Assembly (NCBI GenBank): GCA_043767805.1
Contig: JAYUGC010000089.1
Coordinates: 1 to 30,889, forward strand
Length of the DNA: 30,889 nucleotides
Direction: 5' to 3'
Origin: Pseudomonadota bacterium
GTDB taxonomy: Bacteria > Bdellovibrionota > FAC87 > UBA2466
Below the pieces are notes generated by a model. The model saw only the letters and a program-made list of their open reading frames with translations. It made no database searches and was not told the origin of the DNA. Positions 20,260 through 30,889 of the stretch are shown one piece after another. The number at the start of each line of letters is the position of its first letter. Positions within the stretch are counted from its first letter, which is position 1. Made by a program: the position numbers and the translations under genes.

Positions 20260-20345
20260 TCCCTAAATCCTCGCTTCGCCTGGTACAATAGTGCATTGAC
20301 CCAGCGCGTGCCATCTAATTGGCACCGCCTTATCCCAACTTTTAT

Positions 20346-22292
20346 ATGTGCGGAATCGCCGGATTCGTCGGAAAGCAAGGAACCGTGAGCTCGGTCGAGC
20401 TCGAGGGAATGGCGCAAGCTATTTTGCATCGCGGGCCGAACGATAGCGGCTTTTGGGGACGCTTGAAGTCAGGCGGGCTCGAGCGCTGGCACAGGCCAGG
20501 TGAGAAGCGGGGCGAGTACTCAGTCGCTTTCGGCTTTCGCCGTCTGGCGATTCTCGATCTGTCTCCGAACGGCGCTCAGCCCATGGCGAGCCACGACGGC
20601 CGTTACGTGATGGTCTTTAACGGCCAGATCTATAACTACGTCGAGCTTCGTAAGGAAATGCCGGAAGTGCAGTTTCGTTCCACCGGCGATACGGAAGTGC
20701 TGGTGCACGCCTTGGCCAAATGGGGCATGGACGCGCTCAAACGCTTTCGCGGGATTTTCGCTTTCGCTCTCCATGACACGGTGACAGGAAAAACGTGGAT
20801 AGCGCGTGATCCGCTCGGCATCAAGCCGCTCTATTATTTCGAGGATGAGCGCGGCCTTTTCTTTGGTTCCGAGATCCGCGCGCTCTTGCCTCGTTTCGGA
20901 AAGCCTCAGCTCGCGCGGAAGCTTCTCAGCCGTTACTTGATGTGCAACTGGATTCCAGATCCGGAAACGATGTTCGAAGGGATCCGAAAGCTCGAGCCCG
21001 GCCATTTTTTGGAAATCGACAAGAACGGCCGGGTCGAGGACCGCCGCTACTGGGAATTTTCCTTCGACGTCCAGGATCAGCTTCCGCTCTCGGAGTGGAC
21101 CGACCAGCTCGAAGAGGTTCTGCACAGAGTGGTCGAACGGCAAATGCGAAGCGACGTGCCTCTTGGGTTTTTCCTGAGTGGCGGCGTCGATTCCTCGCTC
21201 CTCACGGCGGAGGCCGCGCGGCTCAAACAACATACGCCGGCCACTTTCACCACGGGCTTTAAATGGTCGAAGGGTGCCTCGGCTCACGACCAACTGGACG
21301 TCGAGAGCGCGCGTGCCATGCGCGAGCATTTCTCTCTCGATTACAACGAGCTCTTGCTCGAGCCGTCCATCGTTTCGATTTTGCCGAAAGTCGTCGCTTG
21401 TCTGGAAGAGCCCATCGCCGATCCCGCCGCCATTTGCAGTTATCTCATCTGTCAGGCGGCGAAGGAAAAATTCACGGTGATGATTAGCGGGCAGGGCGGA
21501 GACGAGCTTTTTGGCGGCTATCCCGTCTATCAAGCCGGCTGGGTGGGCTCGCTCGTGAACCATTTGCCGGGCGCGATGAGAAATTTCGCCGCCGCCGTCT
21601 CCGGCAAGATCCCTTACGCCGTCGGCGGCCGTGAGATTCAGTCCGTGCACCGGGCGCAAAAGATCCTGAGCGCGTCTCGAGAAGCCTGGCCGAATAGTTT
21701 CCTACTCCTTCGCAGTCCCATGCGGCTGGAGCAAATGAGCGCGCTTCTCTCTCCCGAGCTGCGCGGTCAGCAAGAGGCGCCGTTTGGAAGACATCTCGAG
21801 AAGTTCCAGACGGCGAAGGATTGGGATCGCATTCATCAGATGCTGTTCCTCGATTCGAAGACGTACCTACCGTCTCTCAATCTCACTTATAGCGACAAGA
21901 CGAGCATGGCTCACTCCGTGGAGCTTCGCGTGCCGTTACTCGATCAAGAGATCGTCTCGCTCATCGAGCGCGTGCCGAGTCGGTACAAGGCGACGCTCGA
22001 CGGATCTAAAATCCTCCTCAAGCGGTTGGCCGACAGGAAGTTGCCTCGCTCCATCGTGCACCGCCGGAAGATGGGCTTCGGCCTGCCGCTCCGGCAGTGG
22101 TTTCTCGAAGAACTTCAGCCCATGGCGCAGGAGCTGCTCGCGCCCGACCGATTGCGCCGCCAGGGCCTATTCGATCCCGACTTGCCCTCGCAGTGGCTGA
22201 AAGAGCACCGGGAAAAGCAGGCCGATCACTGTATGAAGCTCTACGCCCTGATGACCTTTCAGCTTTGGACGGAAGCTTTCGGCGTCGGTTGA
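20346..22292 (+). CDS. asnB: Asparagine synthase (glutamine-hydrolysing) family amidotransferase
   Basis: MCGIAG (Cys1), HRGP, RRLAILDLS, QPM, FLSGGVDSS, SGQGGDELFGGY, SVELRVPLLD, RRKMGF. Confidence 0.93.
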   Translation: MCGIAGFVGKQGTVSSVELEGMAQAILHRGPNDSGFWGRLKSGGLERWHRPGEKRGEYSVAFGFRRLAILDLSPNGAQPMASHDGRYVMVFNGQIYNYVELRKEMPEVQFRSTGDTEVLVHALAKWGMDALKRFRGIFAFALHDTVTGKTWIARDPLGIKPLYYFEDERGLFFGSEIRALLPRFGKPQLARKLLSRYLMCNWIPDPETMFEGIRKLEPGHFLEIDKNGRVEDRRYWEFSFDVQDQLPLSEWTDQLEEVLHRVVERQMRSDVPLGFFLSGGVDSSLLTAEAARLKQHTPATFTTGFKWSKGASAHDQLDVESARAMREHFSLDYNELLLEPSIVSILPKVVACLEEPIADPAAICSYLICQAAKEKFTVMISGQGGDELFGGYPVYQAGWVGSLVNHLPGAMRNFAAAVSGKIPYAVGGREIQSVHRAQKILSASREAWPNSFLLLRSPMRLEQMSALLSPELRGQQEAPFGRHLEKFQTAKDWDRIHQMLFLDSKTYLPSLNLTYSDKTSMAHSVELRVPLLDQEIVSLIERVPSRYKATLDGSKILLKRLADRKLPRSIVHRRKMGFGLPLRQWFLEELQPMAQELLAPDRLRRQGLFDPDLPSQWLKEHREKQADHCMKLYALMTFQLWTEAFGVG

Positions 22293-22326: not shown

Positions 22327-23499
22327 GTGCCGCTCATCGTTCAAAAATACGGAGGCTCCTCTCTCAGGACGCCGAATCACATTCGGGCCGCCGCCGAGCG
22401 GATTCGCGCTCTCAAAAACGAGGGAAATGAAGTGGTTGCCGTCGTCTCCGCCATGGGCCGGATGACGGATTACCTCATTCGGCTCGCCGAGCGCACCGTG
22501 GCCCATCCCCCTCAGCGCGAGCTCGACATGCTGATGACCGCGGGCGAGCGGGTCTCCATGGCGTTACTCGCCATGTCTTTGGAGGAATTGGGCGTCCCCG
22601 CGATTTCGTTCACGGGCTCGCAAGTGGGTATTATCACCACGAGCGATCACAACGAAGCGCGCATCTTGGAAATTCGGGGAACGCGCACCCAAGACGAGCT
22701 CAAAAAAGGCCGCGTGGTCATCATTGCCGGTTTTCAAGGGGTGAGCCGCGACAAGGAAGTGACTACGCTCGGCCGTGGCGGCTCGGATACGACCGCGATT
22801 GCGCTTGCCGCCGCCTTGAAAGCGCACCGCTGCGACATCCTCACCGACGTCGATGGTTTGTTTAGCGCCGATCCGCGGATTGTCAAAAACGCGAAACTTT
22901 TGCCGCAGCTTTCTTATAACGAAGCTTTAGAGCTTGCGAGCCTCGGCGCGAAGATGCACCCGAGAAGTCTCGAGGTCGCTCGCCGCTACCAGGTTCCGGT
23001 TCGTATCGCCTCGAGCGCGAACGTTGCCGGCGAAGGCACTAATTTGGTCGATAAAGCACACGGAGAGAATATGGAAGAGACCATCGTTAAAGGCATCGCC
23101 ACGAAGGACGGTTTTACTTACGTCTGCGCGGCGGCGGGACTTGCCGCGCTTCTCCCGGCGATGCGAAAGGGTCGGCTCTCGGTGCGCTTTCTTTCGGCGT
23201 CCGACAACGAGACGCGTTTGGTGTGCGAGGCGGGCAAGGCCTCCACTTTGCGAAAAGAGCTCGCGAGTCTTTCGATTACGGAAACACACGTGCCGGACGT
23301 GGCGGTAATTTCGGCTGTGGGCGATGGCTTCACGGCGTCTTGCGAGCTGGTGCCGGATTTCGTGGACGCGCTGAAGAAGGCGGATATCGAGCCGTTGCTC
23401 ATTTCGATTAGCTCGGTCTCTATTTCGGCGGCGGTTCCCGCCGCGAAGAAGGCGGCGGCGACACAGGCGTTGCATGCGGCGCTAATCGAGCGCGTCTAA
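22327..23499 (+). CDS. lysC: Aspartate kinase
   Basis: VQKYGGSS, VVSAMG, GERVS, AGFQG, TTLGRGGSDTTA, TDVDG..SADPR; divergent ACT region. Confidence 0.93.
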   Translation: MPLIVQKYGGSSLRTPNHIRAAAERIRALKNEGNEVVAVVSAMGRMTDYLIRLAERTVAHPPQRELDMLMTAGERVSMALLAMSLEELGVPAISFTGSQVGIITTSDHNEARILEIRGTRTQDELKKGRVVIIAGFQGVSRDKEVTTLGRGGSDTTAIALAAALKAHRCDILTDVDGLFSADPRIVKNAKLLPQLSYNEALELASLGAKMHPRSLEVARRYQVPVRIASSANVAGEGTNLVDKAHGENMEETIVKGIATKDGFTYVCAAAGLAALLPAMRKGRLSVRFLSASDNETRLVCEAGKASTLRKELASLSITETHVPDVAVISAVGDGFTASCELVPDFVDALKKADIEPLLISISSVSISAAVPAAKKAAATQALHAALIERV

Positions 23500-23500
23500 G

Positions 23501-23592
23501 AAGAATGAGAATGAGAATGAGATCGAGAATGAGAATGAGTCAGGGAACGAGAGTCTTAAACTCATTCGCATTCTCGATCTCATTCTCATTCT
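23501..23592. repeat. (GAGAAT)n hexamer array and its inverted copy, forming a 33-bp stem with a 19-nt loop
   Basis: Arm 23508-23540 AGAAT GAGAAT GAGATC GAGAAT GAGAAT GAGT pairs with 23560-23592 at 32 of 33 positions. Confidence 0.9.
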
Positions 23593-23634: not shown

Positions 23635-23668
23635 AAAAAAGGCGCCTCCCGGATTAAGGGGAGGCGCC
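23635..23668 (-). terminator. Intrinsic terminator (minus strand, possibly bidirectional)
   Basis: GGCGCCTCCC-N8-GGGAGGCGCC 10-bp stem followed by T6 on the minus strand. Confidence 0.85.
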
Positions 23669-23695
23669 CTTATTAATAGCGGGAGGTGAAACCGA

Positions 23696-23734
23696 CTAAG
23701 TCGGGGTCACCTCCGTACTAGGAAAACTCACCAT
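23696..23734 (-). CDS. Candidate 12-aa micropeptide MVSFPSTEVTPT
   Basis: SD AGGGGGTGA, 6 nt spacer, ATG...TAG, inside the candidate sRNA. Confidence 0.3.
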   Translation of the reverse strand: MVSFPSTEVTPT

Positions 23735-23910
23735 AGTACATCACCCCCTATCCTTGGGCCGCTGGCCCAATGGGAGGCCATCTGGCCTCTTACGTAAATC
23801 GTATCATCCGACCTATCCGGCACTAAGCCCATTTTTAAGCAAAATTATAAAGCTTTGAATAACAAGGGCTTTTCCCCCTAATTTCGGGTCCGGCCGGAAC
23901 TAATGCGCCG

Positions 23911-23919
23911 TGCTATAAT
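23911..23919 (+). promoter_or_regulatory. Extended -10 sigma70-type promoter of the tadC-FHA operon
   Basis: Perfect TGCTATAAT about 110 nt upstream of the tadC ATG. Confidence 0.6.
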
Positions 23920-24029
23920 TAAGAGGAAATCCAGTCTTCCCCCGGTTCGGTAAGTCATCAAGTTTGAAGGGCTTTCTTACCGATAAGTCATCTGAAGTCT
24001 CACTGCTAACAAGGCGGGAAGGAAATCGC

Positions 24030-24917
24030 ATGCTGCTCGGGTTTGCCGGCATTTTGATCATGGGAGGCGGCGCTTTTTATCTCGGCTGGAATCTTTTTTC
24101 CGGTCAGATGGAAGCGGCGGCCGCCGCGCGCCTACAAGCCGAGAGAAAACCTGCGAACAATAGCCTTCTCAGAATCAATCGCCCGATCTTCCGCGCGCTC
24201 GTCATGCCATACAGTATGCAGTGGAAGCGCTTTGATAGCTGGAAGAAGAAGCACAAGCGCTTGATCATTTCCGCGGGACTCGAGGACGAGCTCGATGCCG
24301 ACGAGCTTCTCGCTTTTAAGATTTCCATGGGCTTCGTCATTCCGATCGCGCTCGCGCTGTTTGCTTTGGTGAACGGCAGCTCCATCGCGCCGTGGCTCCT
24401 AGCCTCCATGTGCTTTGGCGGTTACATTTATCCGACCGCTTGGGTGAAAGGTTGCCGCAAAAACCGCCACGAAGAGATCGCGCTTCAACTTCCGTTCGTC
24501 ATCGATCTTTTGACCCTCGCCACCGAAGCCGGGCTCGATTTCATCGGCGCGATTCAAAAAGTGGTGGAGAAAACGCGCCCCGGTCCCTTGGTCAATGAGC
24601 TCGAGCGCATGCTCCAGCAGATTCAGTTGGGTACCACTCGAGGCGATTCGCTCAGAGACATGGGCTGGCGCATCGATCTCGGGGAAATTGCCTCGCTCGT
24701 CGCGGTGCTCGTGACGGCGGATCAGATGGGTAGCCCACTCGGCCCCGTGCTCCGCGTGCAATCGGATTTGATTCGGACGCAGCGGTTCACGAAAGCGGAG
24801 AAAAAGGGCGCGGCCGCTTCTCAGAAGCTTCTGTTCCCTTTGATTTTCTTCATCATGCCCGCGGTGTTCATCATGATTTTCGGACCCGTGATCCTGGGTT
24901 TCTTGGGAGTTAAGTAA
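24030..24917 (+). CDS. tadC: Tad/Flp pilus inner-membrane platform protein TadC (T2SS F family)
   Basis: LPFVIDLLTLATEAGLDF, ADQMGSPLGPVLRVQSD, AEKKG...KLLFPLIFFIMPAVF. Confidence 0.9.
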   Translation: MLLGFAGILIMGGGAFYLGWNLFSGQMEAAAAARLQAERKPANNSLLRINRPIFRALVMPYSMQWKRFDSWKKKHKRLIISAGLEDELDADELLAFKISMGFVIPIALALFALVNGSSIAPWLLASMCFGGYIYPTAWVKGCRKNRHEEIALQLPFVIDLLTLATEAGLDFIGAIQKVVEKTRPGPLVNELERMLQQIQLGTTRGDSLRDMGWRIDLGEIASLVAVLVTADQMGSPLGPVLRVQSDLIRTQRFTKAEKKGAAASQKLLFPLIFFIMPAVFIMIFGPVILGFLGVK

Positions 24918-25273
24918 TGCGAAGCGCTGAGCTCAAAATCGGAGAAAAGGTGATCGTGGCCAAGTGCTACGTCGCCGAGGATTTCTTCTCGCGCTTCAAA
25001 GGCTTGATGGGCCGGAAAGATCTCGCCCGGGGAGAAGCGGTCATGTTCCCCAAATGTAACTCCATTCATACGTTTTTCATGCGCATTCCCATCGATGTTC
25101 TCCTCGTTTCAGACAAGGGAGACGTCGTGGAAATTAGGGAAAGTCTGGCTCCCTGGCGGATGCTCATGCCTCGCCGAGGTGTGAAGCATGTCGTCGAGCT
25201 CAGAAGCGCGCTGTCTAAGGAGCTCGGCATCAAGGCGGGCTCGCGGCTGAAACTCTCGGGGGTATGGGATTGA
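24917..25273 (+). CDS. DUF192-family protein
   Basis: FFSRFKGLMGR, SIHTFFMRIPIDV, VVEL; coupled to tadC (TAATG). Confidence 0.9.
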   Translation: MRSAELKIGEKVIVAKCYVAEDFFSRFKGLMGRKDLARGEAVMFPKCNSIHTFFMRIPIDVLLVSDKGDVVEIRESLAPWRMLMPRRGVKHVVELRSALSKELGIKAGSRLKLSGVWD

Positions 25274-26913
25274 GAGTCGAGATTTCCCAAAACGGAACGA
25301 TCGTCGAGACCCGGGATCTCGCCGAGGGATCTTATAAGATCGGGCGTGCGCCGGAGTGTGAGTTGCGTCTCAAATCTCCGCAGATCTCCAAGCAGCACGC
25401 CCTTCTCGTCATCAAGGGCGATAAGGCGGCCATCGTCGATTTGGGATCTTCGAACGGCGTTTTCGTAAACGGCATTCTCGTTCGCAAACAAAGAGTCGAG
25501 CCTGGCGATGACATCACCATCGTCGATTTCAAGATCAAGATTTCGCCCCCCGGACGTCCCATGACGCAGCCACGCGGACCTGCGGACATTAACGCGGGTT
25601 TTGGCGGAGGCGAAGGCTTGAGCCTCGACTTCGGCGGCTCGGCCGCGCCCGATCTCAACGCCTTTCAGCAGCCCATGGGGGCGTTGCAGCCCGAAGAACA
25701 GGCCGCGCCCGAGAGAAGTGCCCAGGAAAAGCTTCTGGAAGTCATGGATCAGAAGATCCTCCTTCCTTACTACAGCGTCGTGCGGTCGATGGACTGGCGC
25801 TGGATCCTTTCCTCCATTTTGCTCATTTCGCTCGTGGCTTCCGTCATCTTGAGCGTCATTCCCATCGTACGCTGGGGAAAAAAGATTACTTCCAAAGAAG
25901 CTCTCGAACGAGCCCACGTGGTGCTCGCTCAAACGGTGCGCGAGAACTACCGCATTCTCGCCAAGACCGGCGATTTCTCGGGCCTTACGGTCGAAGCCGC
26001 GGACAACGAGCCCGGCATGCTCGGGGTTTACATCATCGATGCGAAAACCCGGCAGATTCTCTCGCCCGCCAAGTACTACAATAAGTCTTTGACCGACAGC
26101 TGGTCGCTTGCCGCCGTGGACAAGGTTCTCAAAGGCGGGGACAAGATCGATCGGGCGCAGATCGAGCGCGAGGACGGCATTTTCGTCCTGGCTCAGCCGA
26201 TTCGACTCGCTTCGCCCGATACCACCTCGTCCAACATCGCGGCCATCGTGCTCGGAAACTTCGAAGTCTCGAGCGAAATCACGACCACTTTCGAGCCTTT
26301 GGTGGAAGCTTCTCTCTTCGCGGTCCTGATGTCGCTTGGGGCGTTCTTCTTCATCTATAAGATGATTACCTATCCCATCGTGCAGATGAACGAGCAGCTG
26401 GACGCTGCGCTCAAAGGCGAAAACGTCCAGATCACCTGTGAGGCCCAGTTTCCGGAGCTCGAGTCGCTGGCGACTCAGATGAATTTCACCATCGGCAAAA
26501 TGAAGAAGGACGCCGGTGGGGGCAACCTCGCCAACTCGGACGCTGCCGCCGAGGAAGAGGAAGATTATATCCGCGCCATTCGAGAGATGGATGAGGGCAC
26601 GAGTGACGGCATCATCCTTTTGGATAGAGATAAGCGCATCAAGTTCGTCGGCAATATCCTGGGCGAGCTCGTGGGACTCCGCCAGCAATACGCCGAAGGC
26701 CAGAACATCGGCGACGCCTGTAAGGACGCCGGTCTCGCCGGAACTTGCATCGATTTGACCGAAAGCGTGCTCAGCTCTCTCGGCTCCACGCAGACCGCGA
26801 CTCTCGACGTCAACGGGGTGTCCCGCAACATGGTCGCGATAGCCAGAAAAACGAGAAACGGGGACATTCGCTTCATTCTAATTCTACTCAAAATGGGTGG
26901 AGGACAGGCTTAG
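25264..26913 (+). CDS. FHA - TM - periplasmic sensor-like - TM - HAMP-like - PAS-like membrane protein
   Basis: FHA motifs IGR...ISKQH...DLGSSNGVFVNG; two TM helices; YPIVQMNEQLD...PELESLATQMN (HAMP-like); DGIILLDRDKRIKFV (PAS-like). Confidence 0.8.
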   Translation: MGLRVEISQNGTIVETRDLAEGSYKIGRAPECELRLKSPQISKQHALLVIKGDKAAIVDLGSSNGVFVNGILVRKQRVEPGDDITIVDFKIKISPPGRPMTQPRGPADINAGFGGGEGLSLDFGGSAAPDLNAFQQPMGALQPEEQAAPERSAQEKLLEVMDQKILLPYYSVVRSMDWRWILSSILLISLVASVILSVIPIVRWGKKITSKEALERAHVVLAQTVRENYRILAKTGDFSGLTVEAADNEPGMLGVYIIDAKTRQILSPAKYYNKSLTDSWSLAAVDKVLKGGDKIDRAQIEREDGIFVLAQPIRLASPDTTSSNIAAIVLGNFEVSSEITTTFEPLVEASLFAVLMSLGAFFFIYKMITYPIVQMNEQLDAALKGENVQITCEAQFPELESLATQMNFTIGKMKKDAGGGNLANSDAAAEEEEDYIRAIREMDEGTSDGIILLDRDKRIKFVGNILGELVGLRQQYAEGQNIGDACKDAGLAGTCIDLTESVLSSLGSTQTATLDVNGVSRNMVAIARKTRNGDIRFILILLKMGGGQA

Positions 26914-26925
26914 GCCGAGAGTTTC

Positions 26926-28299
26926 ATGGATCGTACGCACACATTAACGCTGCTTGGTAATCGAAAAGGGGGATACCCCTATATCGAGTTGCTGGTCGGG
27001 AAAGAGAAGGGAAAGCTCTACGAGCTTTCCCGCGACCATATGAGCATCGGCCGCAGCGACGAGAGCGATATTCTCTTCGCGAGTGATGCCGTGTCGCGGA
27101 TACATGCCCTCATTTCCCGTGAGGAAGACGGCTGGCACATCCGCGACAATCAGTCGAAGAACGGCATTCAGGTCAACGGAACGAAGCACGACAATGTCTG
27201 CATGCAATCGGGCGATCTCGTGCAGGTAGGCGATTTCGTCTTCCGTTTCCTCGATCCTTCGAAGGCAAAGGCCAAAACGGTGCGCAAACCGAGAAACGTG
27301 AATCTCGCGCAAACTCCCGGGGCTCGTTTGATGCGGGGGGCGCCTAGCCCCGTTTGGTTCGTTGGCGCCTTGCTCGGAGGCCTGGTTTACTTACTTCTGT
27401 CTCCGGCGCTCTCGCGTCCCAAGGCAACGGCACAAAAGGAGCTCGTCATCTCCGCTCCTCCGGCGAAGTCCGAGGCCACCGAGACGGCTCAGACTCAGTC
27501 GGTAGCCGGGGGGCAGCTGGATAACGCGGCGAAAGCTTTGGCGGCCGCGCACGCGGAAGTGGCACATAAAGTGGCGGAGGCGCCCGTCAAGATGGTCGCC
27601 GATAGCTCCGCCGTTCGTCCCATCACCCGCGAAGACCTGACCATCAAGACCCGCAAGAATGGCAAGAAGGTCGAGTCCGGAAAGTCTTTGAAGATTTATC
27701 TCGAAGAAGGGCAGCACTATCTTTCTCAAGGGGATTTCGAGAGCGCGAGCATCGCTTACAACTTCGCCATCCTCATCGATCCTAGAAATCCGATGGCGAT
27801 TCAGGGGATGGAAGCCGCGCAAGCGGGCGTCCGCGACGTCTCGTCCGTTGCCCAGCCCGAGAGAGAGAGCCAGTCCGTGGCCCTTTCCGGGGGACTCGCC
27901 ACGAAGGCCGCGGCCGCGACTGCCGCCGCCAATCAGGAAACCAAGAAGAAGCAGGTTCAAAAGCTTTTTGAAGTGGCGACGGGCGCGCTCATCACTAAGA
28001 AATATCAAAAAGCCATCGATACGGCGGAAGAGATTCGGCGCATCGAGATCAAGGGCGAGACGACTTACCTGAACGAGGCGAAGCAAGTCATCGATCAGGC
28101 CAAGATCAAGCAAAAGGACGAGTTTGAGCCTTTCATCAAGCAAGCGAACTTCATGATTTCCGAAAAGGCGTTCGGCGCCGCGCGCGAGCTCTGCGATCAG
28201 ATGCTCAAGCGAGATGAAGCTTATACCCCCGCGAAAGATTGCCGCGACCGCGCGGAAGCGGGCTTGGGCCGTCAAGCTAGCTCGGGAGGTGCCAAATGA
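26926..28299 (+). CDS. FHA - TM - linker - TPR-like protein
   Basis: IGRS...VSRIH...SKNGIQVNG; one TM; TPR-like helices (EGQHYLSQGDFESA...IDPRN). Confidence 0.85.
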   Translation: MDRTHTLTLLGNRKGGYPYIELLVGKEKGKLYELSRDHMSIGRSDESDILFASDAVSRIHALISREEDGWHIRDNQSKNGIQVNGTKHDNVCMQSGDLVQVGDFVFRFLDPSKAKAKTVRKPRNVNLAQTPGARLMRGAPSPVWFVGALLGGLVYLLLSPALSRPKATAQKELVISAPPAKSEATETAQTQSVAGGQLDNAAKALAAAHAEVAHKVAEAPVKMVADSSAVRPITREDLTIKTRKNGKKVESGKSLKIYLEEGQHYLSQGDFESASIAYNFAILIDPRNPMAIQGMEAAQAGVRDVSSVAQPERESQSVALSGGLATKAAAATAAANQETKKKQVQKLFEVATGALITKKYQKAIDTAEEIRRIEIKGETTYLNEAKQVIDQAKIKQKDEFEPFIKQANFMISEKAFGAARELCDQMLKRDEAYTPAKDCRDRAEAGLGRQASSGGAK

Positions 28300-29576
28300 G
28301 CACGCGTCCCGGGACCTTACAGCCCATGCACATGTCGCCCTTCATCGAGCAGGTCACGGGCGATGATAAGGGGAAAATTTTCGAGCTGGGCTCGACTCAG
28401 CTGACTATTGGCCGCGCGCGCGAGAACGACATCGTCGTTCAGAGCGAAGCGGTGTCGCGTCTTCATGCCCGCCTCATCCAAAGCGATGGGGGTTGGTTCA
28501 TCCGGGACAACGGCAGCAAGAACGGCATCATGGTCAACGGCAAGAACTGCCGTGAGAGCTGGTTGCAGACCGGCGACATCGTCCAGGTGGGAGATTTTGT
28601 CTTCCGCTTCAACGATCCAGGGACATCGTCGGAAGCGGCGGCGGCTCCCGCGGCCTCGGCCGAGCCCGCGATGGAGTTTCAAGCGGCTCCTCAGACCGAG
28701 ATTCCGGTGGTCGCTACCACCGACTACGGCACGGCGCCGACTCAAGCCAAAAAGAAGAAGAACCGCCGCCCGATGATTTACGGTTTGGTGGTGCTTGCGG
28801 CGGCGGCTTACTACTTCACGAGTAGCGACGCGCCGGCTCCTGGAAAGACCGATGGCGAGACTCCGACGCTCGCGCGGCAGTTCAAAACGTCCGAGGAGCC
28901 GAATCTCGGCGCCGATGCGAAGCCGAAACGTCTCATCGGCCTCGAAGATCCCATTTTGAAAGAGGCCGAAGTCAAGATGAGCCGCCTCGACTGGACGAAC
29001 ATGAGCCTTCGTCAGTCGGAGCAGCTCTTCAAGAAGGGCCAGCGCGAATATCTGAGTCAGAATTACCACCGCGCCATCGATTTCTTCCAAAGCGCCATCC
29101 AACTCTACCGCGGGCATCTCGTGGCCGAGCGCTTCTTGAAGCGCGCCATTTACGAGGCTGAGTTAGAAGCGAAGAATAATATGGCGCTCGGGATTCAGTA
29201 CTACTCGTCGCTGCAGTACCAGCGAGCGATGTACCATTTTTCGGAAGTCGTGACGCTCATGTCCCACCGGCCGAAAGAGCCCGTGGTAGCGGAAGCGACG
29301 CGCTACATCGAGCAGTGCAAAAGGATGCTCGTGGCCGCGGAGCTTTATCCGGGAGAGATGAACAACGACAGCCTCCAGGCGCTCGTCGAGCAGCTGGGAG
29401 AGGCAGTAACGGATTTGGATAAGCAGGACCCAGCCGCGCGCGAGCCTTCGTACTTGAAGGTGAAAGAGCTCGCAAGCCGAATCCGGGCGTACCCTCGCAC
29501 GGACCCTGGAGCCTTGGAAAAAGCCAAAGAGGCCGAGGACAAGATCAAAGAGCTGACGGGTAAGAAAGACCAATGA
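28296..29576 (+). CDS. FHA - TM - linker - TPR-like protein
   Basis: IGRA...VSRLH...SKNGIMVNG; TM after a Lys/Arg cluster; KGQREYLSQNYHRAIDFF; ATGA overlap with the preceding gene. Confidence 0.85.
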   Translation: MSTRPGTLQPMHMSPFIEQVTGDDKGKIFELGSTQLTIGRARENDIVVQSEAVSRLHARLIQSDGGWFIRDNGSKNGIMVNGKNCRESWLQTGDIVQVGDFVFRFNDPGTSSEAAAAPAASAEPAMEFQAAPQTEIPVVATTDYGTAPTQAKKKKNRRPMIYGLVVLAAAAYYFTSSDAPAPGKTDGETPTLARQFKTSEEPNLGADAKPKRLIGLEDPILKEAEVKMSRLDWTNMSLRQSEQLFKKGQREYLSQNYHRAIDFFQSAIQLYRGHLVAERFLKRAIYEAELEAKNNMALGIQYYSSLQYQRAMYHFSEVVTLMSHRPKEPVVAEATRYIEQCKRMLVAAELYPGEMNNDSLQALVEQLGEAVTDLDKQDPAAREPSYLKVKELASRIRAYPRTDPGALEKAKEAEDKIKELTGKKDQ

Positions 29577-30889
29577 AGATAACGGTCAAAACTTATATCG
29601 ACGGACAGGAAGCCCTCTCGAAGGTTTTCCCCGAGGGCGTGTACCGTGTCGGCCGTTCCGAGTTCTCCGATATCGTTTTGAATCATTCGAGCATCAGCCG
29701 TAGTCATCTGGAGATTCGGGTGACCGAGTCCGCCGTCTACCTCACCAACATGGGTGCCGGCGGCAAGGTGAAGGTAAACGGCCAAGCCGTCGAGACCGCC
29801 GAGATGAACGACGGGGACGAAGTTCGGGTCGGACCGTTCCAAATCGTCGTATTTCACGGAGAGCGCGAAGGCGAAGCTCCGTCTCCGGCCGGCTTGCCGG
29901 GCGATAATCCTGCCGACGGTGGCGTGAACGTCGAAAATGCCTTTGGCGGCGGAGAGTTTCAGCCCAATGAAGGGGGCGAGGACTTGCCCGTGCCCGCGGA
30001 GCGCGGAGAGGGCAATGCTATCGAGCCCGTGGGAGACCGCAATGACGACTTCCAGCCGGGCGGCGGGGATGGCGCGGGGGGCGTGGCTTTAGCCGAGGCG
30101 GAAGCCGAGCTCGAGATCGAGCCCAATAACGAAGGCACCGCCATGGGGCGGGGCGAGACTCAGCTGGAAATCAAGCCCATCGTCGCGAAGCTCATCTTCG
30201 CCGAAGGCCCGAAGATGGGCGACGAGATGTTCATCGAGACCTTCGAGGTCACGCTCGGCCGCAGCAAGAAAGCGGACATTTTCTTAGACGACGAAAAGCT
30301 CTCCCGCATCCATTGCAAGGTGACTCGCGTGGGCATGGGCTATCGCTTGGTCGACATGAATAGCCGTAACGGCACGTTCGTAAACGGCATCCGGGTGCTA
30401 GAGCATCCCTTGAACAGCTTTGACGAGATCCAGATCGGTAACTCGAAGATCAAGTTCCTCATCCACGACGTGATGACGAACGAGATGCAGCGGGCAGCAG
30501 GCACGCTCGCGGTCATGGGCTCCGACTTCCCCGGAACGGGAAGTGCCGCGGTTGCTTTCGATCAAACGAAGTCTTTGGCCGTCGGCGCTCTGCCCCAGGA
30601 AGTGCTTCTCGAGCTCCAGAGACCCAAAGGTGTCCCGCAGCCCGAGTACTCCTCAGTCGGCGAAATGGTCGAAGGGGAGCCGGACATTTCGCTCCTCAGT
30701 ACGCCTCGCAATAAGCGAAACGCGGTGATGGGCGGACTGCTTCTCATGCTCGTCATAGGGTACTTCCTATTGCCGTCGGCACCGACCGCGACGCCGACGG
30801 ATACGAAGACGGCGGAGACCACGAAGGGTGAGACCAAAGATCCGCTCGCCAACGTGGTGATTCCGGCCAACATGCCGAAGGATTACGCC
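29573..30889 (+). CDS. Tandem FHA-FHA - TM protein, N-terminal part (runs off the right edge)
   Basis: Hand-translated and absent from the ORF track; ATGA overlap. FHA1 VGRSEFSD..SISRSH, acidic Gly/Pro linker, FHA2 LGRSKKAD..LSRIH..DMNSRNGTFVNG, TM AVMGGLLLMLVIGYFLL. Confidence 0.88.
   Translation, partial: MKITVKTYIDGQEALSKVFPEGVYRVGRSEFSDIVLNHSSISRSHLEIRVTESAVYLTNMGAGGKVKVNGQAVETAEMNDGDEVRVGPFQIVVFHGEREGEAPSPAGLPGDNPADGGVNVENAFGGGEFQPNEGGEDLPVPAERGEGNAIEPVGDRNDDFQPGGGDGAGGVALAEAEAELEIEPNNEGTAMGRGETQLEIKPIVAKLIFAEGPKMGDEMFIETFEVTLGRSKKADIFLDDEKLSRIHCKVTRVGMGYRLVDMNSRNGTFVNGIRVLEHPLNSFDEIQIGNSKIKFLIHDVMTNEMQRAAGTLAVMGSDFPGTGSAAVAFDQTKSLAVGALPQEVLLELQRPKGVPQPEYSSVGEMVEGEPDISLLSTPRNKRNAVMGGLLLMLVIGYFLLPSAPTATPTDTKTAETTKGETKDPLANVVIPANMPKDYA

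Follow-up and report, generated by a model that had tools for sequence, protein, structure and literature searches.

A structured RNA family of Bdellovibrionota with a conserved mini-frame and probable kinship to the attack-phase RNA APsRNA2

The dual-function small RNAs (sRNAs) SgrS/SgrT, RNAIII/hld, SR1/SR1P and Spot 42/SpfP encode a conserved, active peptide and carry a separate seed for pairing with messenger RNA (mRNA). In prfB, the gene for release factor 2 (RF2), an internal Shine-Dalgarno (SD) sequence lies 3 nt before the CUU-UGA slip site and serves in programmed +1 frameshifting. In the translation-attenuation leaders of ermC and cat, as in leader-peptide attenuators, a ribosome on a short translated leader remodels SD-containing helices. 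The element described here resembles each of these in part. It lies on the minus strand of contig JAYUGC010000089.1 (assembly GCA_043767805.1, positions 1 to 30,889; hereafter the window, the whole 30,889-nt stretch that was analysed), from a bacterium of the phylum Bdellovibrionota, and appears to specify a short structured RNA with a ribosome-binding site, a frame of a dozen codons and, within this frame, a second SD-like sequence.

Predatory bacteria have so far yielded very few regulatory RNAs. The closest described one is APsRNA2 of Bdellovibrio bacteriovorus HD100, an sRNA with a mapped transcription start site (TSS) whose level, in reads per kilobase per million (RPKM), is 8,869 in attack phase and 204 in growth phase, a 43-fold difference (Karunker et al. 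2013, PMC3627812). It was reported as non-coding, as lacking a FliA promoter and as having no detected homologue outside B. bacteriovorus, and no structure model, open reading frame (ORF) or function is given for it; eight attack-phase sRNAs of this species are presented there without homologues or functions (PMC3627812). A literature search on the name APsRNA2 returned no other paper, and searches for Bdellovibrio sRNAs and small ORFs turned up nothing about this RNA family.

One member was thus already known, as the uncharacterised sRNA APsRNA2; new are the family and its breadth, a structure supported by covariation, a conserved mini-frame and, close ahead of the stop, an internal SD that is predicted to be masked. 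The data show a conserved, structured unit that possesses a conserved promoter box and a terminator; a homologue of it is abundantly transcribed. Beyond this, we give an even chance to the proposal that the unit is an independently transcribed RNA gene of about 158 nt, a ribosome-engaging mini-mRNA or sRNA whose output would be exerted on ribosomes or translation.

The minus-strand unit and its conservation

A preliminary description of the window, made from the letters alone, had listed on the minus strand an extended -10 box, four hairpins, a strong SD sequence and a terminator. All of these features were found by sequence reading between positions 23806 and 23633:

23806-23798, minus strand: extended -10 box TGATACGAT, read from the sequence, with its hexamer TACGAT at 23803-23798
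23791/23790, minus strand: predicted transcription start (A), downstream of the extended -10 box
23789-23774, minus strand: hairpin 1, GAGGCC-AGAU-GGCCUC, from folding; a 5' hairpin whose sequence varies among homologues
23770-23754, minus strand: hairpin 2, UUGGGCC-AGC-GGCCCAA, from covariation; GGGC-UAAAU-GCCC in most homologues
23749-23741, minus strand: SD1, a strong Shine-Dalgarno sequence, AGGGGGUGA, read from the sequence; its GG[AG]GGUG is invariant across alignments
23739-23715, minus strand: hairpin 3, GUACUA...UAGUAC, from folding and compensatory changes; encloses the AUG at 23734-23732
23734-23696, minus strand: mini-frame AUG GUG AGU UUU CCU AGU ACG GAG GUG ACC CCG ACU UAG, 12 codons and a stop, peptide MVSFPSTEVTPT
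23714-23707, minus strand: SD2, an in-frame internal SD-like sequence, GGAGGUGA, covering the codons GAG GUG and forming the 5' arm of hairpin 4
23714-23682, minus strand: hairpin 4, GGAGGUGA-CC-CCGAC-UUA-GUCGG-UU-UCACCUCC, from folding and compensatory changes
23698-23696, minus strand: stop codon UAG at the hairpin 4 loop, read from the sequence
23689-23682, minus strand: 3' arm of hairpin 4, UCACCUCC, complementary to both SD1 and SD2
23671-23633, minus strand: intrinsic terminator from a terminator scan, with a G+C-rich stem (23671-23638, 13 pairs, 9 of them G-C) and a U run (23640-23635)

The predicted RNA extends over about 158 nt, from 23791/23790 to approximately 23634, close to the 160 nt first estimated. 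The terminator, initially drawn as a 10-bp GC stem followed by six U residues, has the longer stem listed above, and hairpin 3 proved weak, with 6 pairs and then a mismatch. Folding of the 171-nt stretch yielded -84.9 kcal/mol as compared with -56.3 +/- 4.3 kcal/mol for 200 dinucleotide shuffles (z -6.69), none of which folded as stably. A scan of the element region for -35/-10 consensus sequences returned no promoter; the promoter was assigned because the extended -10 box is conserved. The 3' arm of hairpin 4, UCACCUCC, matches what we take to be the 3' tail of 16S ribosomal RNA (rRNA). A pattern search for the 16S rRNA 3' end found none in the assembly of the source genome (G000), and the anti-SD of the source organism is assumed.

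BLAST comparisons with 40 relatives showed conservation to be confined to the unit, the flanks not being conserved. The element is present once in the source genome. In the sister species (G001) 81% identity extends over 178 nt, matching 23806-23629, and a further 16 genomes from that family and order matched the core 23752-23707 (17 loci in all with that of G001). The alignment of 18 homologues left invariant the G, T, A and T of a TGnTAnnnT box, SD1 and UAGUACGGAGGUG. An exact-pattern scan of some 185,000 species genomes produced 25 loci, 16 in genomes with Bdellovibrio-type names and 9 in genomes with generic names only. In the homologues, terminator hairpins of unrelated sequence trail the unit. 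At the position of hairpin 1, a hairpin of differing sequence is predicted in most of them and missing in some, including the APsRNA2 homologue.

Two covariance models, R1 (24 close sequences) and R2 (40 sequences, distant ones included), were used to survey 151 genomes sampled from the phylum Bdellovibrionota. R1 matched 29 of the 151 genomes and R2 matched 49, distributed over the families labelled f1 (17/20), f2 (3/3), f8 (9/9), f4 (9/20), f13 (6/11), f14 (1/9) and f19, f22 and f24 (1/1 each). Among the same 151 genomes R2 found nothing in f3, f6, f10, f11, f15 and others, and a search of 39 genomes of family f10 with laxer filters gave nothing convincing (best E 0.068). The copy in the window scored 83.2 bits. 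Each matched genome contained one R2 match, the exceptions being G096, where the match is duplicated on two contig ends, and G017, with a reverse-strand echo. The element represents, in this genome, a single-copy family that extends over several families of Bdellovibrionota. A reading as a repeat element, resembling a repetitive extragenic palindrome (REP) or a miniature inverted-repeat transposable element (MITE), is ruled out by the single copy in G000; the multi-copy repeat here is the neighbouring palindrome at 23508-23592.

The structure was examined in a 42-row alignment fitted to the model, a procedure that favours structure; one row, taken from the reverse strand of the window, is spurious. 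In this alignment 84.8% of cells are paired, and at 21 of the 26 pairs both partners have changed. The covariation score was 0.351, compared with at most 0.094 for slid partners, and none of 500 shuffles reached the real alignment on any measure. Compensatory changes affect all 6 modelled pairs of hairpin 2, 11 of the 12 of hairpin 4 and, once distant homologues are included, 4 of the 8 of hairpin 3, which occurs in the variants GUACUA/UAGUAC, GUGAU/AUCAC, GCCAUGG/CCAUGGC and GCCGUG/CACGGC. For hairpins 2 and 4, covariation is already visible in an alignment of close sequences made with MAFFT only. Hairpin 1 lies outside the covariance model. The covariation check in relatives that the preliminary description had proposed thus supports helices 2, 3 and 4. 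At two pairs of loci, L033/L085 and L035/L089, an insertion of about 70-100 nt in hairpin 4 folds into a long extension of the stem and leaves the 12-codon frame and the stop unchanged.

Rfam 15 gave no match at the gathering threshold over the whole window. The best scores inside the element were those of suhB/mmgR (19.4 bits; gathering 41) and Ms_IGR-7 (17.5 bits; gathering 45), and no family recurred over 16 homologue loci. RF02471 (Ms_IGR-5), considered as a candidate, was dropped, as it had no match at E <= 10 in a 751-nt scan and none in the 16 homologue loci; across the whole genome its single match lies elsewhere (13.5 bits, E 1.9). The expectation that the RNA belongs to no known family, the myxobacterial Pxr family included, holds for Rfam.

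Relationship to APsRNA2 and evidence of transcription

The published 134-nt sequence of APsRNA2 (Figure S1) is letter-identical to G147:C1:535188-535321, the coordinates 535,188-535,321 given in Table 2 of the same report (PMC3627812). An R2 match on the plus strand, G147:C1:535163-535296, overlaps this stretch. Its score, 20.7 bits with an E value of 0.008, is weak when taken alone. We accept homology on account of the shared architecture, of intermediates with E values down to 3e-10 (in G084, for example) and of the matching of all 9 genomes of the family of APsRNA2. The window element and APsRNA2 would accordingly be members of one family, by a transitive argument in which the direct score is weak. 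The element had been called an orphan, a label that does not survive the description of one member as a transcript in 2013.

Both RNAs have hairpin 2, a strong SD (AAGGAGGUG in APsRNA2) and a start codon shortly beyond it; in APsRNA2 this AUG stands 6 nt on and opens a 15-codon frame, MVKNVDITKAEVTSS*, ending in ...AEVTSS. Both also have GGAGGUG 9 nt ahead of a UAG in the loop of hairpin 4, followed by a terminator, and APsRNA2 is transcribed independently from a mapped TSS; in the G147 copy the published start (535,188) falls 7-8 nt past a TATCAT box. Unlike the RNA predicted in the window, APsRNA2 lacks hairpin 1 and begins at hairpin 2; its gene lies between those of a thiol oxidoreductase and a histidine kinase, not beside tadC, and only in the loop and in the blocks of SD1 and SD2 is its sequence identical to the window element. 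Two other candidates in the same organism were rejected: APsRNA5, considered for its size (176 nt), whose context (Bd0652/Bd0654) and published sequence do not fit, and a copy ahead of TadC in G147/HD100, where the gap between Bd0469 and Bd0470 is only about 160 nt and the homologue is elsewhere.

Attack-phase expression is published for HD100 only, the copy in the window having a predicted promoter and terminator. Three sediment DNA sequencing runs contain the stretch. One soil metatranscriptome contig (198 nt, depth 6.7) derives from the copy of a relative: it matches 23666-23774 with 10 differences, then diverges, and hints weakly at a short RNA being transcribed from the relative's copy. 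The preliminary proposal of a stand-alone sRNA is borne out by conservation limited to the unit, by the near-invariant TGnTAnnnT box, by covariation in helices 2-4 and by the homologue with a mapped start. If the kinship is accepted, APsRNA2 now stands as one of a conserved single-copy family found over several families of Bdellovibrionota, with a structure and an unexpected mini-frame, and its host is a culturable and genetically tractable species.

The mini-frame and its internal Shine-Dalgarno-like sequence

Among 44 distinct homologues, 43 retain the frame with the same succession of elements: SD1, start codon, open frame, in-frame GGAGGUG and stop. The single exception, L079, is a weak match without GAGGUG. 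The start codon (AUG in 36 cases, GUG in 7) is placed 5 nt past SD1, or 7 nt in two. In all but one of the homologues SD1 is 9-10 nt long, and in all but one the start lies inside hairpin 3. The frames comprise 12-19 codons. They terminate within the hairpin 4 loop or beside it, 3 codons past the Val of GAG GUG (4 codons past it in two homologues). The same plan, with the start 5-7 nt past SD1, recurred in 21 of 21 further loci found with R2; in loci of family f4 the stop follows after 2 or 3 codons.

The distances between the start codon and GAGGUG are 21, 24, 27, 30, 33, 36 and 42 nt, every one a multiple of three. Were length unconstrained, the chance that six further lengths would all be in frame is about (1/3)^6; this case rests on some 6 to 8 independent length changes, the homologues being related and their counts overstating independence. 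L096 and L097, which are close relatives, differ by one inserted codon, indicating that in-frame length change is ongoing. To judge from these comparisons, both the frame and the spacing between SD2 and the stop are under selection.

These findings bear on the view that the RNA is a non-coding, trans-acting sRNA that works by base pairing, its SD- and anti-SD-like stretches serving as structural or seed elements and its frame being incidental. Candidates for pairing with ribosome-binding sites of mRNAs or with the 16S tail include the C-rich 3' arm of hairpin 4 and the G-rich linker, and some sRNAs of Gram-positive bacteria are known to use C-rich seeds against SD sequences. Such a function would suit the strong covarying structure, the variable peptide and the partial pairing predicted for SD1 and the start codon, and it would agree with the description of APsRNA2 as non-coding (PMC3627812). 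It does not account for a start codon at a nearly constant distance from SD1 in 43 of 44 homologues and all 21 further loci, for the seven in-frame distances with a stop fixed after GAGGUG, or for a start codon that keeps its position while the sequence of hairpin 3 changes around it. Hfq, moreover, was not found in G000, a genome 100% complete by marker genes. On balance we regard this explanation as unlikely, though not negligibly so.

If the frame is read, its product might be what matters: the 12-residue peptide MVSFPSTEVTPT would be the effector, and the RNA structure would only tune its expression. Retention of the frame and of a strong SD across the phylum is in keeping with this idea, as is the likeness of the peptides within families (PSTEV in f1 and f2, DITKAEV in f8). 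The full consensus is MVS[FL]PSTEVRxx in f1/f2 and xxDITKAEVxxS in f8, with others elsewhere. Against an effector peptide, the length ranges from 12 to 19 residues, and the only residues common across families, Glu-Val, are those that the SD-like GGAGGUG encodes. No synonymous change occurs in the invariant codons, as expected of a constraint at the RNA level. A Pfam scan of the 34- and 53-residue ORFs of the region gave no family, the 12-residue product being too short for the scan. An effector peptide is therefore improbable in our estimate. Invariant codons without synonymous change, in a frame whose peptide varies, suggest that selection is apparently on the reading and on the RNA sequence rather than on the product; translation itself looks like the selected feature.

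The same observations set the RNA beside the dual-function sRNAs, which it resembles in being short, structured and independently transcribed and terminated, and in combining a ribosome-binding site with a small frame. One mark of that class, a small ORF kept together with its ribosome-binding site, is present in the homologues counted above. Unlike in those sRNAs, the predicted peptide is alike only within families, there is no conserved unpaired seed apart from SD1, and what is conserved in the coding part is an internal SD-like sequence. The dual-function or micropeptide character first suggested for the element is thus upheld for the frame and not for the peptide sequence.

SD2 itself, GGAGGUG, is invariant in the alignments and is read in frame as Glu-Val. 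Its pairing partners drift, mostly through C-to-U changes confined to the 3' side, so that G-C pairs become G-U in 2 to 12 of the 42 rows per pair; in certain distant members CCUCC has been replaced in the 3' arm of hairpin 4 (CAUCUUC, GUCAUC). Because the sequence of SD2 is kept while its partners drift, it must matter beyond pairing. The predicted probability that SD2 is unpaired is 0.03 in the window and 0.13 on average over 38 homologues, and the stop codon is predicted to be mostly exposed (0.72). SD-like heptamers are under-represented in G000, with 374 occurrences of GGAGGTG versus about 818 expected and 321 of GGGGGTG versus about 1130. SD2 precedes the last sense codon by about 6 nt and the stop by about 9 nt. 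This spacing corresponds to that between an SD and a start codon, and would allow a ribosome positioned at the stop to pair its anti-SD with SD2. In constrained folds the 3' arm of hairpin 4 pairs with SD1 in roughly half of the sequences.

We propose that the RNA is organised as a mini-mRNA, in the order one or two 5' hairpins, SD1, a start codon in the weak hairpin 3, a frame of 12-19 codons, SD2, stop and terminator. The mini-frame is probably translated, and the translating ribosome would unwind hairpins 3 and 4. More tentatively, and with somewhat less than an even chance in our view, SD2 could be reached only by that ribosome, whose anti-SD would pair with it on arrival at the stop; the ribosome would be held or paused and the 3' arm of hairpin 4 set free. 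As a consequence, ribosomes would be titrated or parked, or an anti-SD-like arm would be unmasked only during translation. The output would then be neither the peptide nor a neighbouring gene. If an internal SD ahead of the stop does hold ribosomes, this would represent an unusual mode of sRNA action.

Several points weigh against this scheme, in addition to the relatedness of the homologues and the weak direct score of APsRNA2. The mean unpaired probability of SD1 is 0.29 and exceeds 0.5 in only 3 of 38 homologues, leading us to reject the notion that SD1 is always exposed, and the start codon is held in the stem of hairpin 3. Translation of the mini-frame is argued from sequence comparison, and the pausing step, like any target acted on downstream, is purely inferred. 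The RNA sequencing run yielded only the relative's 198-nt contig and pieces of repeat, and the transcript of the source organism was present in no run. The loop motif YUUAG around the stop, finally, may be kept for reasons of RNA structure or sequence.

This last point affects the reading of the stop codons, which are TAG in 27, TAA in 15 and TGA in 1 of the 43 frames, as compared with TAA 964, TGA 938 and TAG 735 in a crude set of 2,637 genomic ORFs of at least 300 codons. UAG and UAA are the two stops read by release factor 1 (RF1). The bias is a hint only, since the homologues are related and the YUUAG motif may be an RNA constraint. In an extended form of the proposal, the RNA would park ribosomes: the mini-frame would serve only to bring a ribosome onto the masked internal SD and tether it at the UAG or UAA in hairpin 4. 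Such an RNA, if abundant in attack phase, could store or gauge translation or termination capacity and gate the switch between the non-growing attack phase and growth, either through the held ribosomes or through release of the anti-SD arm during translation only. We consider this extended form unlikely.

The in-frame SD-like sequence just ahead of a stop, placed for anti-SD pairing there, recalls prfB. Unlike prfB, the RNA has a spacing of about 9 nt, no common slippery codon and the stops UAG or UAA, and it ends at a terminator. A frameshift cassette of the prfB type was rejected on this 9-nt spacing, on the 16 different last sense codons that precede the stop, on the stop codon usage given above and on the lack of any frame to enter after the shift.

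A further possibility is that the RNA is a decoy for a protein, either a sponge for CsrA or another RNA-binding protein or a target for a factor recognising the helix formed by SD- and anti-SD-like sequences. In CsrA sponges, hairpin loops display numerous GGA motifs. CsrA is encoded once in G000 (contig C14); the conserved ACGGAGG holds an A(N)GGA-like site, two SD-like sites stand about 33 nt apart, and a homologue is abundant in attack phase (PMC3627812). Yet the only well-conserved GGA sits in the stem of hairpin 4 and is absent in one genus (CACGAGGUG), SD1 is GGGGG, without GGA, in most members, and a decoy would leave the conserved frame unexplained. A sponge of the CsrB/RsmZ type was rejected, as the several loop-exposed GGA motifs expected of it are not present. 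We hold a protein-binding decoy to be very unlikely.

Genomic surroundings and the Tad operon

The element occupies a gap between plus-strand genes:

20319-22292, plus strand: asparagine synthase
22327-23499, plus strand: aspartate kinase, convergent with the element
after the gap, plus strand: T2SSF/TadC-like protein, DUF192 protein and four FHA-domain proteins, divergent from the element

About 110 bp separate the -10 boxes of the element and of the tadC side. The nearest upstream divergent gene is T2SSF/TadC in 22 of the 25 loci derived from the pattern scan, usually followed by DUF192 and FHA genes. Conversely, 31 of 37 TadC loci with at least 63% identity have the element upstream in divergent orientation; of the six misses, four have less than 300 nt of flank, in one the element is 1.9 kb off, outside the locus, and one (L106) has a 1.2 kb flank and no match. 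The downstream gene is aspartate kinase in most of the 25 loci, and a serpin, an SLT transglycosylase (twice), an SDR or an unknown protein in five others; a methyltransferase is also found among the varied downstream genes elsewhere. In distant families the neighbours are not Tad genes and include PA14, SDR, M48/CinA, aldehyde dehydrogenase, PBP and RNase H/OsmC. The divergent arrangement with Tad and FHA genes noted at the outset is thus real here, in this family and in a sister family. A functional tie to the pilus operon is unsupported, because the RNA sits elsewhere in distant families; on present comparisons, the Tad link appears as synteny within one order only.

Gene order also allows for action in cis, with the element as a leader-peptide attenuator with read-through, or as a divergent transcript controlling the tadC-DUF192-FHA operon by promoter interference, as an antisense or as a decoy. 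The layout of SD, short ORF, hairpins and terminator is indeed leader-like, and the synteny with T2SSF/TadC is as frequent as stated. Like the attenuation leaders, the RNA would have a ribosome on a short frame remodelling SD-containing helices. In the leaders, unlike here, there is a downstream regulated gene; here, the masked SD lies inside the frame with no start after it, and the terminator is not remodelled in the predictions. With a ribosome placed on SD2 or on the stop in constrained minimum-free-energy (MFE) folds, a weak test, the terminator stayed intact in all 28 sequences, of 38, in which it was recognised. The downstream gene is convergent in the window and variable elsewhere, the neighbours are non-Tad in distant families and beside the APsRNA2 homologue, and tadC has conserved promoters of its own. 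Action in cis is, on this evidence, very unlikely. The attenuator version was rejected, as no co-oriented regulated gene lies downstream and the constrained folds, MFE only and hence a weak test, gave no support to an antiterminator.

In some lineages hairpin 4 runs into a U run, a feature that speaks for the cis-acting explanation in so far as translation could affect termination. At L069, L104, L105, L111 and L101, which belong to one genus, and at L113 and L115, the 3' arm of hairpin 4 abuts the U run (...GACCUCGCCUUUUUUU) and a second terminator lies beyond. In these homologues hairpin 4 may itself terminate transcription; if so, translation of the mini-frame could select between a short and a long RNA. 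At L071 (G006, same family) the element is away from tadC and without a clear U-run terminator, and a 452-residue ORF with no Pfam match begins 4 nt past the model match on the same strand. The unit may act there as a 5' leader.

The region upstream of tadC contains, on the plus strand, a conserved extended -10 box, GTGCTATAAT, at 23910-23919 and a conserved sigma-28/FliA-like signal composed of TCAAGTTT (23958-23965), a 14-nt spacer and CCGATAA (23980-23986). Both are present in 27 related loci. The best TadC match in G147 is Bd0470; this gene and Bd0471-0473 are attack-phase specific in Table S1 of the published report (PMC3627812), and their expression fits the two conserved signals upstream of tadC. 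The start of T2SSF/TadC is given in the ORF list as the TTG at 23964, which sits within the sigma-28-like -35 box; relatives point to the ATG at 24030-24032, preceded by GGAAGGAAA. Beyond tadC and DUF192, the interval 25264-30889 of the window is taken up by four consecutive FHA-domain genes, two of which also encode TPR domains, and such a run attached to a lone Tad-type platform gene is unusual.

Outside the element and directly after the stop codon of the aspartate kinase gene lies the GAGAATG-rich palindrome of about 85 nt at 23508-23592. It accounts for the miRNA-like Rfam matches. Many contigs of G000 hold copies of it at 71-100% identity, as do G001, G003 and G006. The palindrome looks like a repeat of the REP/MITE type, and possibly functions as a bidirectional terminator.

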